Shown piece by piece: positions 42,980 to 50,576 of a stretch of 64,000 bases of DNA. The notes beneath the pieces are model-generated. The model was not told where the DNA came from, did no database searches, and saw only the letters and a program-made list of their open reading frames with translations. A program made the position numbers and the translations under genes. The stretch is from the NCBI RefSeq assembly GCF_003334765.1, contig NZ_QOWT01000002.1. One strand, 5' to 3'. Source of the stretch: Escherichia coli. GTDB lineage: Bacteria; Pseudomonadota; Gammaproteobacteria; Enterobacterales; Enterobacteriaceae. Numbering within the stretch: the first letter of the stretch is position 1; each line of letters opens with the position of its first letter.

Positions 42980-44068
42980 ATGAATAACCGGGAAAAGGAG
43001 ATCCTTGCAATTTTACGGCGTAACCCGCTGATTCAGCAGAACGAAATTGCGGACATGCTGCAAATCAGCCGTTCGCGCGTTGCGGCGCATATTATGGATT
43101 TAATGCGCAAAGGCCGGATTAAAGGCAAAGGTTACATTCTCACCGAGCAGGAATACTGCGTAGTGGTGGGGACAATCAATATGGATATTCGCGGGATGGC
43201 GGATATCCGTTACCCGCAATCGGCTTCTCATCCCGGTACAATTCATTGCTCAGCGGGCGGCGTGGGACGCAACATCGCCCACAATCTGGCGCTGTTAGGC
43301 CGTGACGTCCATTTGCTTTCAGTGATTGGCGATGACTTTTATGGCGAAATGCTCCTGGAAGAAACGCGCCGTGCCGGCGTGAATGTCTCCGGCTGCGTTC
43401 GTTTGCATGGTCAAAGCACATCGACGTATCTGGCAATTGCCAATCGAGACGATCAAACCGTGCTGGCGATTAACGATACCCATCTGCTGGAACAGTTGAC
43501 ACCGCAACTACTGAACGGGTCGCGCGATTTACTTCGTCATGCGGGCGTGGTACTGGCTGATTGCAACCTGACAGCCGAGGCGCTGGAATGGGTCTTTACC
43601 CTCGCTGATGAAATCCCGGTGTTTGTCGATACCGTTTCAGAATTCAAAGCGGGCAAAATCAAACACTGGCTGGTGCATATTCACACCCTGAAACCCACTT
43701 TACCGGAGCTGGAAATTTTATGGGGACAGGCGATCACCAGCGATGCTGACCGTAATACCGCAGTGAATGCATTGCATCAGCAAGGTGTTCAGCAACTGTT
43801 TGTTTATTTGCCCGATGAGTCAGTTTATTGCAGCGAAAAGGATGGAGAACAATTTTTGCTGACCGCGCCAGCGCATACGACAGTAGACAGTTTTGGTGCT
43901 GACGATGGTTTTATGGCGGGCCTGGTATATAGCTTTCTTGAAGGATACAGTTTCCGCGACAGCGCCCGTTTTGCGGTAGCCTGCGCGGCAATTTCGCGCG
44001 CCAGCGGCAGCTTAAACAACCCTACCCTGTCTGCCGATAACGCGCTTTCATTAGTGCCAATGGTGTAA
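42980..44068 (+). CDS. yeiI: PfkB-family sugar/nucleoside kinase with N-terminal HTH, YeiI
   Basis: HTH N-terminus plus ribokinase-like domain (GGVGRNIA, GADD); starts 2 nt after nfo stop. Confidence 0.85.
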   Translation: MNNREKEILAILRRNPLIQQNEIADMLQISRSRVAAHIMDLMRKGRIKGKGYILTEQEYCVVVGTINMDIRGMADIRYPQSASHPGTIHCSAGGVGRNIAHNLALLGRDVHLLSVIGDDFYGEMLLEETRRAGVNVSGCVRLHGQSTSTYLAIANRDDQTVLAINDTHLLEQLTPQLLNGSRDLLRHAGVVLADCNLTAEALEWVFTLADEIPVFVDTVSEFKAGKIKHWLVHIHTLKPTLPELEILWGQAITSDADRNTAVNALHQQGVQQLFVYLPDESVYCSEKDGEQFLLTAPAHTTVDSFGADDGFMAGLVYSFLEGYSFRDSARFAVACAAISRASGSLNNPTLSADNALSLVPMV

Positions 44069-44072
44069 CAAT

Positions 44073-44168
44073 GTTGCCGGATGCGACGCTTAACGCGTCT
44101 TATCCGGCCTACAAATCAGGCAATTTCAGCAAGTAAATGTAGGCCTGATAAGCTTGCGCATCAGGCAA
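44073..44168. repeat. REP pair (convergent)
   Basis: GCCGGATGCGACGC..TATCCGGCCTAC and an inverted partial copy between yeiI and nupX. Confidence 0.8.
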
Positions 44169-44174
44169 TGACAC

Positions 44175-45425
44175 TCAAGCTAAACCAATAAAGAACCCGG
44201 CAATGGTCGCACTCATCAAGTTGGAAAGCGTCGCCGCCGCCAGCGCCCGTAAACCAAGCTGGGCGATTTCCGGCGCACGGTGTGGCGCAACCGCAGAAAA
44301 CGCCCCCACCACCACCCCGATAGAACCAAAGTTAGCGAAACCGCACAACGCGAAGGAAATAATCGCCACAGTTTTAGCATCGAGAGTGCCAGCCGTTTGC
44401 AGATAGGGTGAGAAATTGAGATAAGCGACAAATTCATTTATTGCCAGTTTCTGTCCAATCAAACTCCCGGCAAGATTCGCATCACTCCAGTCCACACCCA
44501 TCACCCACGCCAGTGGAGCCAGCAGGTAACCTAAAATGGACTCCAGCGAGGCATGTTCAAAACCAAACCAGCCACCAACGCCGCCGATAATACCGTTAAT
44601 CAACGCAATTATTGCAACAAATGCCATCACCACTGTTGCCACACCTGCGGCGATTTTCAGCCCGGTCATTGCCCCTGTCGCAGCGGCTTCAATAATGCTT
44701 TTTGGCGGTGTTTCGGTGAAAGAGAGGTTATTAAAGGAAACCTGCGAAGATTCCGTTGCCGGGCTTAACAGGCGGGCAAACAAGATCCCGCCAGGGATCG
44801 CCATTAATGATGCCGCCAGCAGATATTCCACAGGCACGCCCAGTGCGGCGTAACCAATCATTGTCGAACCAGCAATCGAGGCCATGCCACTACAAATCGC
44901 TGTAAATAATTCATTGCGATTCAGACGATCGATAAAGGGTTTGACGATTGCCGGAATTTCGTTTTGCCCGAGGAAAATGGTGGTGACCGCGACGAATGAC
45001 TCGATCTTGCTGATATTTAATGCTTTCTGGAAGATACCGCCGAGAATTCGAATTAAAATCCCCATCACACCGATGTAGTAGAGAATACTCACCAGCGCGG
45101 TGACGAAGATAATTGCCGGTAACACCCTGAAACCAAAGATAAATCCTGCACCATCAAATAAGGTATCCATTTTCGGTCCGACCAGAGAACCGAAGATAAA
45201 TGCGCTACCCGCGTCGCTGTACGCCATCACTTTATGCACGCCAAAAGCGACTTTTTCAGCGACCCAACGCCCTGGCGGTAACCAAAGCATAATGCCGCCA
45301 ATCACGACCTGTAACACTAACGCCGCGCCAACGGTACGCAGGCTGATCTTCTTCTTGTTTACTGACAGTAAAAACGCAATCGTCAGCAATACCACCATTC
45401 CCAGAACACTTCTCATGACATCCAT
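44175..45425 (-). CDS. nupX: NupC-family nucleoside permease NupX
   Basis: 416 aa polytopic transporter; close paralogue of psuT in this window. Confidence 0.85.
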   Translation of the reverse strand: MDVMRSVLGMVVLLTIAFLLSVNKKKISLRTVGAALVLQVVIGGIMLWLPPGRWVAEKVAFGVHKVMAYSDAGSAFIFGSLVGPKMDTLFDGAGFIFGFRVLPAIIFVTALVSILYYIGVMGILIRILGGIFQKALNISKIESFVAVTTIFLGQNEIPAIVKPFIDRLNRNELFTAICSGMASIAGSTMIGYAALGVPVEYLLAASLMAIPGGILFARLLSPATESSQVSFNNLSFTETPPKSIIEAAATGAMTGLKIAAGVATVVMAFVAIIALINGIIGGVGGWFGFEHASLESILGYLLAPLAWVMGVDWSDANLAGSLIGQKLAINEFVAYLNFSPYLQTAGTLDAKTVAIISFALCGFANFGSIGVVVGAFSAVAPHRAPEIAQLGLRALAAATLSNLMSATIAGFFIGLA

Positions 45426-45524
45426 AGTGATTATCTCTTCATGTCATATTGGGCGACGGCTTTCTGCCCATCAGAAATAGCCAGGCCTGCATCTTGCGAT
45501 ACCGGCCCGGCTTGTTATCAACAC

Positions 45525-46466
45525 TTAATGGGTTTTGATGTAGCCGCGCACGCACTCTTCGACTAATCCCCAGAACCAGTCTGTATCAATAGTGATGCCG
45601 ACTTTGGTATTGGCGGGCTTGCCAAGAACGCCCAGCTCGTCGCAGACGGTACGCCCATAGCAAGGGCCACTGTTGACGTCCACTTCGACGTACATCTCCT
45701 GGGTTTTAATGCCATCAGGGTTAATCAGATAACCGATGCAGGTGGCGTCGTGCACCGGGCCGCCAGCAAGGCCGTAGTTTTCGAACTGCGTTTTGAGAGT
45801 GAAGTTCATGATGTCGCTGAACAGCTCTCCGGCGGGGCCGCCTGCCCTTTCCATCCGAGCAATCACGTCCGGGGTGCAAACGGTCTGGTTGGTGAGATCG
45901 AGGCCCATCATCACTAATGGAACGCCGGAGGTGAACACTACGCGTGCGGCTTCCGGGTCGGCAAAGATGTTGAACTCGGCAGATGGCGTGAAGTTGCCTG
46001 TACCGTAAGCGCCGCCCATTAGCACAATTTCACGGATTTTGGGCAGGATCGCGGGTTGCATACGCATTGCCACCGCGATATTTGAAAGCGGACCAACCGG
46101 CACCAGAGTGATATCGCCATCGCTTGCCATCAGGGTATCAATGATATATTTCACCGCATGAGTGCTTTCTGCCTGGCGGGTCAGCGGCTCGAATACCGGG
46201 CCATCCAGTCCGGTTTCACCGTGAATATTATCGGCAACGATTTGTTGACGCATAATGGGCTGCGGCATCCCCGCATAAACCGGAACATTAATCTCCAGTT
46301 TCTGGCAAACATTCAGGCCATTAATTAATGTTTTATCAAGCGTCTGATTACCCGCTACAATAGTGATGCCTAATAAATCTATTGCCGGATGTTTCGCCGC
46401 CATCATTATAGCAATAGCATCATCATGACCCGGATCACAATCCAGAATAATTTTTCTCTTTTCCAT
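45525..46466 (-). CDS. rihB: Pyrimidine-specific ribonucleoside hydrolase RihB
   Basis: N-terminal DxDxxxDD calcium/ribose motif (DCDPGHDDA). Confidence 0.9.
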
Positions 46467-46634
46467 TGTTTATTTCCTCTGTTTCCAGTTGCGTTATTTT
46501 TCCTACAGCAAAGAAAATTCGACCGGGCCGATGATTGAATCTTAACAACAGCGTACGTATGCTAAATATGAGAAATCTCATAGCGGATAAACATCGTGAA
46601 AGAAATCCACAATAATGATCTTAAGCAGCAATTG

Positions 46635-47294
46635 ATGAGTGAATCCGCGTTTAAGGATTGCTTTTTAACGGATGTTTCAGCCGATACGCGGCTGTTTCAT
46701 TTTTTAGCGCGTGACTACATTGTGCAGGAAGGGCAACAGCCGTCCTGGCTGTTTTACCTGACGCGAGGCCGCGCCAGGCTTTACGCCACGCTAGCTAATG
46801 GTCGCGTGTCGCTGATCGATTTCTTTGCCGCCCCCTGTTTTATTGGCGAGATTGAGTTAATCGATAAAGACCATGAACCGCGTGCGGTGCAGGCTATTGA
46901 AGAGTGTTGGTGCCTTGCGCTCCCTATGAAACATTACCGTCCGCTGTTATTAAACGACACGCTATTTTTACGAAAACTCTGCGTCACCTTAAGTCATAAA
47001 AATTATCGTAATATTGTTTCTTTAACTCAGAATCAATCATTTCCGTTAGTGAATCGCCTGGCAGCATTTATATTACTCTCGCAGGAAGGTGATCTTTATC
47101 ACGAAAAGCATACGCAAGCGGCAGAGTATTTAGGCGTTTCTTATCGACATCTTTTATATGTTCTCGCGCAGTTCATTCACGACGGTTTATTAATTAAAAG
47201 CAAGAAAGGGTATCTCATTAAAAACAGAAAGCAGTTGTCAGGACTGGCGCTGGAGATGGACCCGGAGAATAAATTCTCCGGGATGATGCAGTAA
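46635..47294 (+). CDS. yeiL: CRP/FNR-family transcriptional regulator YeiL
   Basis: cNMP-binding-like domain plus C-terminal HTH; alternative GTG start at 46596. Confidence 0.8.
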
Positions 47295-47314
47295 AAATTA
47301 TTTTCAATAGCGCG

Positions 47315-47357
47315 ATTGCCGGATGCAACGCTTAATACGTTTTATCCGGTCTACAAA
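47315..47357. repeat. REP element
   Basis: TTGCCGGATGCAACGC..TTTATCCGGTCTAC between yeiL and psuT. Confidence 0.8.
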
Positions 47358-47364
47358 TCGAGCA

Positions 47365-48615
47365 TTACGCCAGACCAATAAAGAACCCGGCAATAGTCGC
47401 ACTCATCAGGTTGGAAAGCGTTGCTGCTGCCAGCGCCCGTAAACCAAGCTGGGCGATTTCCGGCGCGCGTTTTGGCGAAATAGCCGAAAATGCGCCAACG
47501 ACAACACCGATAGAACCAAAGTTAGCAAAACCACAAAGCGCAAAGGAGATAATCGCAATGGTTTTCACTTCCAGCGTGCCGCCCGTTTGCAGGTATGGGG
47601 AGAAACTCAGGTAAGCGACGAATTCGTTAATCGCCAGTTTCTGCCCAATCAGGCTACCCGCAAGATTGGCATCACTCCAGTCCACACCCATGATCCACGC
47701 CAGCGGTGCCAGCACATAGCCAAAAATACTTTCCAGAGAGGCATTGGCGAAACCAAACCAGCCGCCAATTCCGCCGATAATGCCGTTGATCAGCGCAATA
47801 ATTGCGACAAACGCCATTACCACCGTCGCCACACCAGCGGCGATTTTTAGCCCGGTCATCGCACCGCTCGCCGCCGCTTCGATAAAGCTTTTTGGCGGCG
47901 TTTCGCTGAACGACAGATTTTCAAATGTGACCTGCGAAGGCTCGGTTGCCGGGCTAAGAATACGTGCAAACAAAATCCCGCCAGGGATCGCCATCAGCGA
48001 TGCCGCTAACAGGTAGTCAATTGGTACGCCCATTCCGGCATAACCAATCATCATCGAACCAGCAATGGACGCCATCCCGCTACAAATTGCGGTAAACAAC
48101 TCGTTGCGATTCATGCGATCGATAAACGGTTTAACGATCGCCGGGATCTCATTTTGCCCGAGGAAAATAGTAGTAACCGCAACAAAAGATTCGATTTTGC
48201 TGATGTTGAGGGCTTTCTGGAAAATGCTGCCAAGGATGCGAATCAGCAGCCCCATCACGCCAATGTAGTACAGCAGACTGATGAGCGCAGTAACGAAAAT
48301 AATCGCCGGAAGTACGCGAAAGGCGAAGATAAAACCCGCACCGTCAAACAGGACATCCATTTTCGGCCCAACCAGCGAACCAAAAATGAAGGCGCTACCG
48401 GCATCACTGTAAGACATCACTTTATGAACGCCTAATGCCGCCTGTTCTACTGCCCATTTTCCCGGTGGGAAGTAGAGCATGATGCCACCAATAGCGATTT
48501 GCAGCAGCAGTGCGGCTCCAACCGTGCGCAAACTGATGCTCTTTTTATTCACTGACAACAGAAATGCTATTGCCAGTAACACCACCATCCCCACAACACT
48601 TCTCATTATATCCAT
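47365..48615 (-). CDS. psuT: NupC-family pseudouridine/nucleoside transporter PsuT (YeiM)
   Basis: 416 aa; close paralogue of nupX (by-eye estimate near 85-90 percent aa identity). Confidence 0.85.
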   Translation of the reverse strand: MDIMRSVVGMVVLLAIAFLLSVNKKSISLRTVGAALLLQIAIGGIMLYFPPGKWAVEQAALGVHKVMSYSDAGSAFIFGSLVGPKMDVLFDGAGFIFAFRVLPAIIFVTALISLLYYIGVMGLLIRILGSIFQKALNISKIESFVAVTTIFLGQNEIPAIVKPFIDRMNRNELFTAICSGMASIAGSMMIGYAGMGVPIDYLLAASLMAIPGGILFARILSPATEPSQVTFENLSFSETPPKSFIEAAASGAMTGLKIAAGVATVVMAFVAIIALINGIIGGIGGWFGFANASLESIFGYVLAPLAWIMGVDWSDANLAGSLIGQKLAINEFVAYLSFSPYLQTGGTLEVKTIAIISFALCGFANFGSIGVVVGAFSAISPKRAPEIAQLGLRALAAATLSNLMSATIAGFFIGLA

Positions 48616-48708
48616 AATGATTTTCCCTTCATGCCGGTAAATCCGGCGTCAGCGCCAGGTTTTGGTATGCTTGATGAGTACGGGCGACGGCTTTCTGCCC
48701 GTCAGAAA

Positions 48709-49647
48709 TTAACCCGCGAGACGCTGATATTCTTTGGCAATTTCGCTCGCCAGAATGGCGTTGTTGAACACCAGCTGGATGTTGGATTTCAGGCTGTCAC
48801 CGCCGGTCAGTTCAGCAACGCGCGCCAGCAGGAATGGCGTACTTTCTTTACCAATGACTCCCTGAGCTTCAGCTTCAGCTACCGCCTGATCGATCGCCGC
48901 ATTGATAGTGTGTTCCGGCATAGCAAACTGTTCCGGGATCGGGTTCGCTACCACGAGGCCACCGTTCAGACCGCTTTGCCATTTCACCGCCATTGCACGG
49001 GCAATTTCGCTGGCGCTGTCGAGACGAATGCTGACGTCAAACGGGCTGGTGCGGCAGAAAAACGCAGGCAGCGCTTTAGTCTGATAGCCAATTAACGGCA
49101 CACCGAAGGTTTCTAAATACTCAGTGGTTAATCCTAAATCGAGAATAGATTTCGCCCCGGCACAAACAACGGTGACATTAGTATTTGCCAGTTCTTGCAA
49201 ATCGGCAGAAATATCGAAGGTATGTTCCGCCCCGCGATGCACACCACCAATTCCCCCGGTGGCAAATACTTTAATTCCGGCAAGCGCCGCAATAATCATC
49301 GTTGAAGCCACAGTGGTTGCGCCATTTTTTCCGGCGGCAACAACAAAAGGTAAATCGCGACGACTAACTTTGGTCACGTTATGCCCTTCACGACCCAGTA
49401 ATTCAATTTCTTCTTTGCTTAACCCCACTTTCATCACGCCGCCAATAATGGCGATCGTGGCAGGTACAGCGCCCTGTTTACGAATAGTTTCTTCAACTTC
49501 AATTGCGGTCTGGGCATTTTGTGGGAACGGCATCCCGTGAGAAATAATGGTCGATTCCAGCGCCACAACCGGTTTTTTGTTTTTTAAAGCGTCCTGCACT
49601 TCCGGGGAAATTTGTAATAATTCAGGGGAAATTTTTAATTCAGACAT
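48709..49647 (-). CDS. psuG: Pseudouridine-5-phosphate glycosidase PsuG (YeiN)
   Basis: Indigoidine-synthase-A-like fold; recognised sequence. Confidence 0.9.
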   Translation of the reverse strand: MSELKISPELLQISPEVQDALKNKKPVVALESTIISHGMPFPQNAQTAIEVEETIRKQGAVPATIAIIGGVMKVGLSKEEIELLGREGHNVTKVSRRDLPFVVAAGKNGATTVASTMIIAALAGIKVFATGGIGGVHRGAEHTFDISADLQELANTNVTVVCAGAKSILDLGLTTEYLETFGVPLIGYQTKALPAFFCRTSPFDVSIRLDSASEIARAMAVKWQSGLNGGLVVANPIPEQFAMPEHTINAAIDQAVAEAEAQGVIGKESTPFLLARVAELTGGDSLKSNIQLVFNNAILASEIAKEYQRLAG

Positions 49648-50576
49648 TCTGCGTTCTCCACTAACGATATAACGTTGGCAATCGATAAATCGGGGTTATT
49701 GGTGTATTCACAGGAGAGCGCCATTGACGAACATCCCTGTGCGAAACGAACAGATTCGGCAAACGGCATTCCGTCTACCCAACACGAAGCAAGTCCCGCC
49801 ATCATGGCATCGCCCGCTCCGGTAACATTAATAACATTGGTTTTGATCGGCGCAGACCAGCCACTTTCACCGCTGATATCGCTGTAATAAACGCCGTCGC
49901 CGCCCATGCTCAATACCAGTCGGTTCAGGCCATGTTGATGGAACCAGGCAGCAACTTTTGCCACATCTTCACGCCCTGACAGCGCAATCCCACTCAGGGT
50001 TTCCGCTTCAAGGCGGTTTGGCTTGAGAGTGTGGATCTGATTTAGACGGTCGCGCACTTTGACACATTTCCATGCCGAAACCGGATCGACAAATACGGGT
50101 ACGTTGGCGGCATTATCCAGAATCCATGCCAGTGCCTCTTCACTGATATTACAGTCCGCGACAATGACCTTTGCCCTCTGAATAAATTCACCGTGCTGTG
50201 CGAGATATTCAGCTGTAATAGCGTTGCTAATATTCATGTCATTTATAGCAACCAGCATTTCACCGGTATTATCGAGTAATGATAAATAACTCGACGTATT
50301 TTCTCCCGGCACAATCAGGCATTTATCGACATAAACGCCAGATTGATTGGTTTGCGTTAGCAGCGATTGACCATAAAAATCACTGCCTACGGCGCTCAGT
50401 AGCCAGGCTTTGTTACCCAGCAACGCCAGGTTTTGTGCAATATTGCGCCCTACTCCACCAGGCGTAAATTTTATTTTACCTGGATTTGAATCCGCATAAT
50501 TTAATGATTCATGTGAATATCCGGCGACATCAATATTCGCCGAACCTATAATTACGACATAATCCTTTTCGCGCAT
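49635..50576 (-). CDS. psuK: Pseudouridine kinase PsuK (YeiC)
   Basis: PfkB family (GGVGRNIA, TGAGDAMMAG); 13-nt overlap with psuG. Confidence 0.9.
   Translation of the reverse strand: MREKDYVVIIGSANIDVAGYSHESLNYADSNPGKIKFTPGGVGRNIAQNLALLGNKAWLLSAVGSDFYGQSLLTQTNQSGVYVDKCLIVPGENTSSYLSLLDNTGEMLVAINDMNISNAITAEYLAQHGEFIQRAKVIVADCNISEEALAWILDNAANVPVFVDPVSAWKCVKVRDRLNQIHTLKPNRLEAETLSGIALSGREDVAKVAAWFHQHGLNRLVLSMGGDGVYYSDISGESGWSAPIKTNVINVTGAGDAMMAGLASCWVDGMPFAESVRFAQGCSSMALSCEYTNNPDLSIANVISLVENAECLN

Follow-up and report, generated by a model that had tools for sequence, protein, structure and literature searches.

Two old nucleoside-salvage modules probably joined in Escherichia coli, and a diverged permease repeat, nupX-psuT, that recombines to delete rihB-yeiL

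Escherichia coli carries two paralogous permease genes, nupX and psuT, in one locus, which probably arose when two old nucleoside-salvage modules were joined, and the permease repeat so formed occasionally recombines, deleting rihB-yeiL. The two products are ancient paralogous H+/nucleoside permeases (CNT/NupC family, TC 2.A.41), each closing a different salvage unit. One unit, yeiL/rihB-nupX, would supply a pyrimidine nucleoside hydrolase and a uridine/cytidine permease; the other, psuK-psuG-psuT together with yeiI, would serve pseudouridine catabolism. Nesting of one cassette in the other sets two genes of 1.25 kb, 79% identical and in direct orientation, at a distance of 3.19 kb. Comparative synteny and divergence point to a repeat that came from the union of two modules and speak against a recent in-place duplication. 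Homologous recombination in the 3' half of the genes now and then fuses psuT-5' to nupX-3' and drops rihB-yeiL, restoring the single-transporter layout of E. albertii and Citrobacter. Short gene-conversion tracts pass between the two genes as well. The recombination is presumably RecA-dependent; the roles of RecA and of mismatch repair are taken from established E. coli recombination genetics. The features are collected in Table 1; the window is the whole stretch of DNA analysed (64,000 nucleotides of E. coli assembly GCF_003334765.1, contig NZ_QOWT01000002.1).

Table 1. Features of the nupX-psuT locus, in window coordinates
Feature	Position	Strand	Description and evidence
yeiI	42980..44068	+	winged-HTH and PfkB kinase fusion, convergent with nupX; Pfam HTH_24 (residues 1-48), PfkB (58-348)
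inverted REP pair 3' of nupX	44074-44122 and ~44136-44165		repeat comparison, REP core, sub-threshold Rfam naRNA4
nupX (yeiJ)	44175..45425	-	416-aa CNT-family nucleoside permease, ends rihB-nupX; ORF, TIGR00804, RefSeq annotation of identical DNA
crossover-bearing part of nupX	44223..44716	-	gene nt 710-1203; holds all five natural crossover intervals
leader box 5' of nupX	45451..45478	-	ATTTCTGATGGGCAGAAAGCCGTCGCCC; 27/28 identical to psuT copy
rihB	45525..46466	-	ribosylpyrimidine nucleosidase, between the repeats; NF007417, 727 bits; absent in L006-L010
yeiL	46596..47294	+	CRP/FNR-type regulator, divergent from rihB, between the repeats; NF007707, 418.7 bits; lost in recombinants
single REP 3' of psuT	47316..47364		abuts yeiL end; 86% to nupX REP; REP core motif; weak naRNA4
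psuT (yeiM)	47365..48615	-	416-aa CNT-family permease, ends psuK-psuG-psuT; ORF, TIGR00804, 88% identical to NupX
crossover-bearing part of psuT	47413..47906	-	gene nt 710-1203; counterpart of nupX zone
leader box 5' of psuT	48682..48709	-	begins at last base of psuG stop codon
psuG	48709..49647	-	pseudouridine-5'-phosphate glycosidase; RefSeq annotation; Pfam Indigoidine_A in orthologous loci
psuK	49635..50576	-	pseudouridine kinase; NF007355, 713.8 bits

The permease pair had been noticed in an earlier, sequence-only reading as two 416-residue reading frames in the same orientation, 3190 bp apart, and the ORF coordinates bear this out, with both genes on the minus strand in direct orientation and 3190 bp from start to start. 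Protein identity, put by eye near 85-90%, is 88% by BLASTP (367 of 416 residues, 95% positives, no gaps, E=0). The DNA estimate of about 85% was too high; the ungapped alignment gives 78.8% (986/1251). Both products belong to the CNT family, since their TIGR00804 scores (499.5 bits for NupX, 517.6 for PsuT) lie above the curated NCBIfam cutoff of 442. The top homologue, P0001, which is 100% identical across the whole query, is annotated with Nucleos_tra2_N, Gate and Nucleos_tra2_C domains (PF01773, PF07670 and PF07662). Homology to CNT structures is full-length (5L26, E=2.6e-130, residues 2-415; 3TIJ, E=3.5e-125), although both structures are of distinct proteins, from Neisseria wadsworthii and Vibrio cholerae, respectively, and so from outside the genus; the former, CNT(NW), differs from the window permeases by small indels and many substitutions. 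The names nupX, rihB, yeiL and psuT agree between NCBIfam and the RefSeq annotation of identical E. coli DNA. The gene pair is ordinary K-12 annotation, already known, and is nothing categorically new.

The paralogy is old, with a dS of about 1.4 (1.39) and synonymous sites saturated in the 5' half. Both genes are under strong purifying selection (dN/dS 0.055). Third codon positions account for 198 of the 265 nucleotide differences. Divergence is uneven along the genes. DNA identity is 66-77% in the 5' third and has climbed to 78-91% by the 3' end, pS is about 0.8 in the 5' half and about 0.5 in gene nt 710-1203, and many of the 49 amino acid differences fall in the N-terminal third (pN 0.10-0.13, against 0.03-0.08 elsewhere). 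The longest exact matches run for 38, 23, 21 and 20 nt. A psuT-derived 3' part of nupX, as from a Campbell-type integration, was considered and rejected: identity in sliding windows is 68-86% to every psuT over the full length of nupX, and no such block is seen.

Homology between the two genes ends at the leader box on one side and at the REP on the other. A 41-nt insert follows the psuT leader box and has no counterpart 5' of nupX. The leader core, GGGCAG..GTCGCCC, is kept upstream of both permease gene types in other genera, and the near-identity of the E. coli nupX and Escherichia psuT boxes could reflect either shared local origin or gene conversion. Rfam searches of the leader box and intergenic regions returned only sub-threshold, REP-related naRNA4 matches. 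Folding gives a stable hairpin in the rihB-nupX spacer (z = -3.4); the psuG-psuT spacer falls short of significance (z = -1.1). A REP had been placed after each permease gene, and elements are found at both sites, one 3' of psuT and an inverted pair 3' of nupX. They are assigned to the REP family by the core motif, which the window has at seven sites where chance alone predicts 0.37, and whose sites at this locus (44099-44112, 44139-44152 and 47341-47354) are intergenic. With E. coli REP/BIME elements they share the enriched core, the palindromes, an intergenic position just past stop codons and a strain-variable copy number; other strains lack the second REP 3' of nupX and keep one. Their likeness to each other is only that of the whole REP family, and they are uninformative as part of the gene repeat. 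The apparent absence of yeiI from many genomes in megablast searches was traced to match splitting at the variable REP; yeiI is present there and 98% identical.

Gene order in other genera separates the two modules. Among the matches listed, in which Escherichia other than E. coli is represented by one E. albertii genome, the order fruA-psuK-psuG-psuT-yeiI-nfo, with a single transporter, is found in E. albertii, three Citrobacter species and Leclercia UBA3338; where yeiI lies beside psuT in these E. albertii, Citrobacter and Leclercia loci, nupX and rihB are entirely absent. Conversely, Leclercia, Buttiauxella, Klebsiella spallanzanii and Superficieibacter have loci where yeiL-rihB-nupX is accompanied by neither yeiI nor psu genes. 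This trio forms fruA-yeiL-rihB-nupX-nfo in Leclercia GCA_008087065 and Buttiauxella B2, and in K. spallanzanii it sits between yeiW and setB. In GCA_046366295 it lies ahead of psuK-psuG-psuT-yeiI, whereas the E. coli trio is nested in the other module, with psuT on one side and yeiI on the other. Thus yeiL-rihB-nupX is a separate three-gene cassette, and yeiI belongs with psuKGT. The yeiL of orthologous loci has a Pfam cNMP_binding domain.

These layouts bear on the earlier suggestion of two side-by-side kinase-transporter-glycosidase modules, which does not hold. Only the transporter and part of the leader are repeated, and a comparison of the rihB and psuG products found no similarity. The yeiI and psuK products are paralogous, as had been proposed, yet distant, at 39% identity across 307 aa. 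Moreover, yeiI goes with psuKGT elsewhere and yeiL-rihB-nupX stands as its own cassette. Of the proposed "old segmental duplication", the age is upheld by the dS of 1.39, but duplication of a segment or module is not, homology being limited to the transporter and part of the leader.

Could psuT, or its whole module, have been duplicated in tandem within the E. coli lineage and then have diverged in place? The same orientation, equal length and indel-free alignment of the genes would be explained, as would the 28-nt leader box and similar downstream REP common to both and the lack of nupX in E. albertii (one genome). We nevertheless regard such a duplication as largely refuted and very unlikely. 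Copies from a recent tandem duplication should be closest relatives, but PsuT orthologues, mutually 95-98% identical, are nearer to each other than to NupX, whose identity is 88-89% with all PsuT of Escherichia and Citrobacter and 88-90% with homologues linked to rihB. At the gene level also, nupX is equally far from the psuT of E. coli (79% nt, 88% aa) and of Citrobacter, while the PsuT proteins of these two are 95% identical. The tree excludes NupX both from the Escherichia PsuT clade (bootstrap 89%) and from a weaker Escherichia plus Citrobacter PsuT clade (62%), so nupX did not arise by duplication of psuT in place in E. coli. Homology should also run through the neighbour genes, but rihB and psuG are unrelated and yeiI and psuK are only 39% identical. 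Four other genera have rihB-linked NupX-like genes with psu genes absent or placed apart. The shared flanks are no better guide, since the leader box is kept 5' of both gene types across genera and the REP likeness does not exceed that of the whole family. Support is poor for the deeper branching of the transporter tree; with the rihB-linked clade at 11% bootstrap, two clean orthologous groups are unproven.

In several genera the fruA-nfo interval is home to both modules alike, which makes an ancient tandem with repeated losses conceivable. A very old permease duplication would have left the modules adjacent in an early enterobacterial ancestor, and the single-module layouts would be secondary losses, some of them produced by the same permease-permease recombination. 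The interval does carry either or both modules depending on the genus, the deep permease tree is star-like, and recombinational loss is seen in present-day E. coli. The module order, however, is not constant: in E. coli psu comes first, with rih nested before yeiI, whereas GCA_046366295 has rih followed by psu. In K. spallanzanii the cassette is even found across the fru operon, on its other flank. A single crossover between permease genes would retain yeiI, yet this gene is missing from the cassette-only loci, and E. albertii PsuT is 98% identical to that of E. coli over its full length, with no obvious hybrid. On balance we think this history unlikely, though less so than duplication in place, and prefer the joining of two separate modules.

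The sequence-only reading had predicted that recombination between the repeats would delete rihB-yeiL, and a survey of 5,426 complete E. coli genomes reveals that exact product in five of them, each with a different crossover. The five (L006-L010) have yeiI, one intact 1251-nt (416-aa) psuT-5'/nupX-3' hybrid and psuG, and lack rihB and yeiL. In each hybrid, psuT-type sequence gives way just once, and cleanly, to nupX-type sequence; 132-133 of the 133 fixed diagnostic sites fit, and the polarity is the one gene order predicts. The breakpoints lie at nt 710-792, 922-972, 1034-1035, 1083-1089 and beyond 1149 (~1197-1203), or about residues 237-264, 308-324, 345, 361-363 and 399-401, all in the more similar 3' half of the genes. 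An in-register hybrid, loss of the intervening DNA and crossovers where identity and exact runs peak are as in deletion between diverged direct repeats. Gene conversion of tuf and rrn- or IS-mediated deletions are established cases of repeat recombination in enterobacteria. Here the repeats are just 79% identical, and deletion events are accordingly rare (5/5,426).

Assemblies can merge repeats, and every hybrid initially came to light in a single complete genome, so the hybrids might be artefacts of repeat collapse. This is extremely improbable. An identity of 79% between the copies is too low for merging, and the breakpoints differ across the five genomes with one clean switch apiece. Other assemblies carry the exact hybrid proteins as well, on 4 to 29 contigs. 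For the CFSAN004176-type hybrid, at least 24 independent assemblies all have psuK-psuG-hybrid-yeiI neighbours, and collapse is refuted for this allele.

Shorter exchanges are also seen: 47 nt of ETEC4071 nupX are identical to its own psuT, and L011 has an identical tract of 137 nt. A chimeric query for the reciprocal product, a triple permease with doubled rihB-yeiL, found no single-piece match; the search joined non-collinear pieces, and the top matches proved to have IS1 inserted in nupX or psuT and no duplication. The cassette also decays by IS1 events and by a deletion within nupX that has become fixed in B2-type strains. This 1136-bp deletion, the B2-type allele, is the commonest change at the locus (971 of 5,426 genomes).

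The GQNE, INEF and CGFANFGS segments, identical in NupX and PsuT, are those we take to correspond to the nucleoside-binding segments HP1, HP2 and TM7 of vcCNT. As these canonical segments are the same, the functional difference must sit in other residues. Such a difference, put forward earlier as divergence in substrate, agrees with transport data: NupX takes up uridine and cytidine, whereas no uptake by PsuT was detected when uridine, cytidine and xanthosine were tried (PMC11241209). Deletion of psuT results in more extracellular pseudouridine (PMC13090712). The window genes are 100% identical to those of K-12-like genomes and share family, operon partners and reported transport behaviour with the K-12 genes of PMC11241209. 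Hybrid alleles, conversion tracts and cassette nesting are not mentioned in either paper.

The population survey adds modest new detail to a known gene pair. The corrected picture of the modules matters for assigning regulators and substrates to poorly characterised genes. Through the B2-type allele, about 18% of complete E. coli genomes, ST131-type strains among them, have a dead nupX, which bears on studies of nucleoside and nucleoside-drug uptake. The five natural, intact PsuT/NupX chimeras are a ready domain-swap series for the residues that set apart a uridine/cytidine carrier from a presumed pseudouridine carrier. Tentatively, and with the chances rather against it, the fruA-nfo interval of Enterobacteriaceae might be a swap site for two alternative cassettes, psuKGT+yeiI and yeiL-rihB-nupX, both closed by a homologous permease gene, which would be exchanged, merged and resolved by permease recombination. 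If so, the permease would be a portable homology arm for cassette exchange, of which the mixed Leclercia layouts, like the five hybrids in E. coli, would be snapshots.

The nucleoside permeases NupX and PsuT (CNT family) each have 416 residues and align without gaps at 88% identity and 95% similarity, within the 85-90% estimated by eye in the sequence-only reading. The companion estimate for DNA, about 85%, was too high: alignment gives 78.8% (986/1251), and third codon positions hold 198 of the 265 differences. The synonymous divergence (dS = 1.39) and a dN/dS of 0.055 indicate that the split is very old and that selection keeps both genes. The proportion of synonymous differences (pS) falls from about 0.8 in the 5' half to about 0.5 in the 3' half. 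The window is 100% identical to E. coli K-12-like genomes, and psuG is the only gene of the locus whose product lacks an NCBIfam match.

Features of the nupX-psuT locus in window coordinates
Feature	Position	Strand	Basis or remark
yeiI	42980-44068	+	NCBIfam; order from ORFs/RefSeq
nupX	44175-45425	-	NCBIfam; order from ORFs/RefSeq
Internal nupX deletion	44223-45358		Equivalent of the 1136-bp deletion
nupX leader box	45451-45478		Core GGGCAGAAAGCCGTCGCCC
Hairpin	45479-45512		Directly after rihB stop codon, before nupX leader box
rihB	45525-46466	-	NCBIfam; order from ORFs/RefSeq
yeiL	46596-47294	+	NCBIfam; order from ORFs/RefSeq
psuT	47365-48615	-	NCBIfam; order from ORFs/RefSeq
psuT leader box	48682-48709		Core GGGCAGAAAGCCGTCGCCC
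psuG	48709-49647	-	RefSeq annotation; Pfam Indigoidine_A in orthologous loci
psuK	49635-50576	-	NCBIfam; order from ORFs/RefSeq

The repeat exceeds the coding sequence at two places, a leader box on the 5' side and a REP element on the 3' side. The 28-nt leader boxes of the two genes match at 27 positions, and a 41-nt insert is present upstream of psuT only. The box has no match in Rfam. Its core, GGGCAG..GTCGCCC, is kept across genera upstream of both permease gene types, and the box also precedes psuG-linked and rihB-linked homologues in Citrobacter, Leclercia, and Superficieibacter; the Leclercia version, AGGC...GCCT, would preserve the outer GGGC/GCCC pairing. REP elements do follow each permease gene, as had been noted by eye, one 3' of psuT and an inverted pair 3' of nupX, the second of which is absent from O157 and further strains. 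The REP core motif occurs seven times in the window versus 0.37 expected. The 99-nt rihB-nupX spacer folds at -35.6 kcal/mol (z = -3.4), and its stable hairpin could serve to terminate or attenuate transcription between the two genes.

The permease genes were also proposed as a substrate for recombination that would delete rihB-yeiL, and a survey of 5,426 complete E. coli genomes bears this out. The segment is kept in 5,419 of them. A synthetic query for the expected product (yeiI 3' end, nupX 3' half, psuT 5' half, and psuG) identified five genomes in which a lone intact gene, 416 aa long, separates yeiI from psuG: EH10-18-47 (Laos), SY019 (Korea), E203449 (Mali), CFSAN004176 (USA), and 11PC (mink, China). 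These carry a hybrid transporter and lack rihB-yeiL. At 133 diagnostic sites, fixed and differing between nupX and psuT, each hybrid switches once from psuT-type to nupX-type. The switches fall at nt 922-972, 710-792, 1083-1089, 1034-1035, and after 1149, the one in 11PC being refined to about nt 1197-1203 by alignment of the gene end; as all five differ, they argue for five independent events. All lie within the 3' 45% of the gene, where identity is higher and where most of the longest exact-match runs (38, 23, 21, and 20 nt) sit. Assembly artefacts are ruled out, since the hybrid proteins recur on 4 to 29 contigs of other assemblies; for the CFSAN004176 allele, at least 24 contigs also keep the neighbouring genes. 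A chimeric-query search of E. coli genomes for the reciprocal duplication found none. The gene pair itself was already known, and the survey contributes modest detail.

The two further genomes without rihB-yeiL have other causes. In ET734 the loss is an IS1-adjacent deletion. CUPS04 has a non-homologous deletion that begins within yeiI and reaches as far as the end of psuK, taking with it nupX, rihB, yeiL, psuT, and psuG; the gene remnants overlap tail-to-tail. An internal nupX deletion of 1136 bp is found in 971 of the 5,426 genomes (17.9%), so that 67 nt at the start of the gene and about 47 nt at its end remain. It is the B2-type allele, found in clone D i14 (L001, 3590-3800), ST131, and a Nissle-derived strain. 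In several strains, locus genes are interrupted or flanked by IS1 and IS200 (ET734, TOK-001, CP131_Sichuan, 600029, and ETEC4071). In ET734 and TOK-001, the same 750 nt of the nupX 3' end remain next to IS1, and the adjoining deletions differ in length; IS1 is additionally found at another nupX site and in psuT, and IS200C between nupX and rihB.

Sequence exchange short of deletion is also seen. A 47-nt tract of ETEC4071 nupX equals its own psuT where other nupX alleles differ at nine sites, strain SCPM-O-B-8794 has a 137-nt tract identical between its two genes, and in several psuT alleles the last five differing sites are of nupX type. Repeated gene conversion is a plausible reason why synonymous sites have diverged less in the 3' half. 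Between B2 (clone D i14) and K-12-type alleles, yeiI and psuK are 81%, psuG 89%, and psuT 90% identical (window 42980-44068 and 47365-50576), whereas identity is 96-99% for rihB, yeiL, nfo, yeiH, and fruA; two very old haplotypes thus flank a common middle segment. The same four B2 genes are 91-92% identical to those of E. albertii, an ordinary between-species level. Six records labelled plasmid in the E. coli collection match rihB-yeiL; they could be mislabelled replicons or genuine transfers.

NupX and PsuT are identical at the segments matching the binding site of the Vibrio cholerae transporter vcCNT, so any difference in specificity has to lie in other residues. Low-efficiency uptake of uridine and cytidine is reported for NupX, and no uptake of these or of xanthosine for PsuT, whose pseudouridine role is assigned from operon association (PMC11241209). 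In production strains, extracellular pseudouridine rises when psuT is deleted (PMC13090712).

The sequence-only reading saw here an old segmental duplication of a kinase-transporter-glycosidase module. The age holds, given the dS, but the module duplication does not: no similarity was found between RihB and PsuG, and YeiI, an extra N-terminal winged-HTH DNA-binding domain (residues 1-48) fused to a PsuK-like PfkB kinase domain, is a mere 39% identical to PsuK. Gene order in other genera points the same way. E. albertii, three Citrobacter species, and Leclercia UBA3338 have fruA-psuK-psuG-psuT-yeiI-nfo, with a single transporter and no rihB, yeiL, or nupX. Leclercia GCA_008087065 and Buttiauxella B2 have fruA-yeiL-rihB-nupX-nfo and lack yeiI and the psu genes. 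In GCA_046366295, yeiL-rihB-nupX stands ahead of psuK-psuG-psuT-yeiI; in K. spallanzanii it lies between yeiW and setB; and Superficieibacter has it in a 15-kb locus in which no fru, psu, yeiI, or nfo gene was found. These mixed layouts identify yeiL-rihB-nupX as a three-gene cassette and place yeiI with psuKGT. In E. coli, psuT and yeiI flank the nested cassette, as they do in SCPM-O-B-8794, labelled E. coli and 92-94% identical (91.5-94.2% to K-12 for each locus gene), hence probably a cryptic Escherichia lineage.

NupX shares 88-89% identity with every PsuT from Escherichia and Citrobacter and 88-90% with rihB-linked homologues, and PsuT orthologues are 95-98% identical among themselves. 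In a neighbour-joining tree, NupX belongs neither to the Escherichia PsuT clade (bootstrap 89%) nor to a weaker Escherichia plus Citrobacter one (62%), and clusters with rihB-linked genes, although deep nodes are weak. Since yeiI adjoins psuKGT in every genome examined, YeiI is a candidate for a regulatory or sensing role in that operon. In place of a duplicated module, the reading now is of two modules that came together, their permeases being ancient paralogues.
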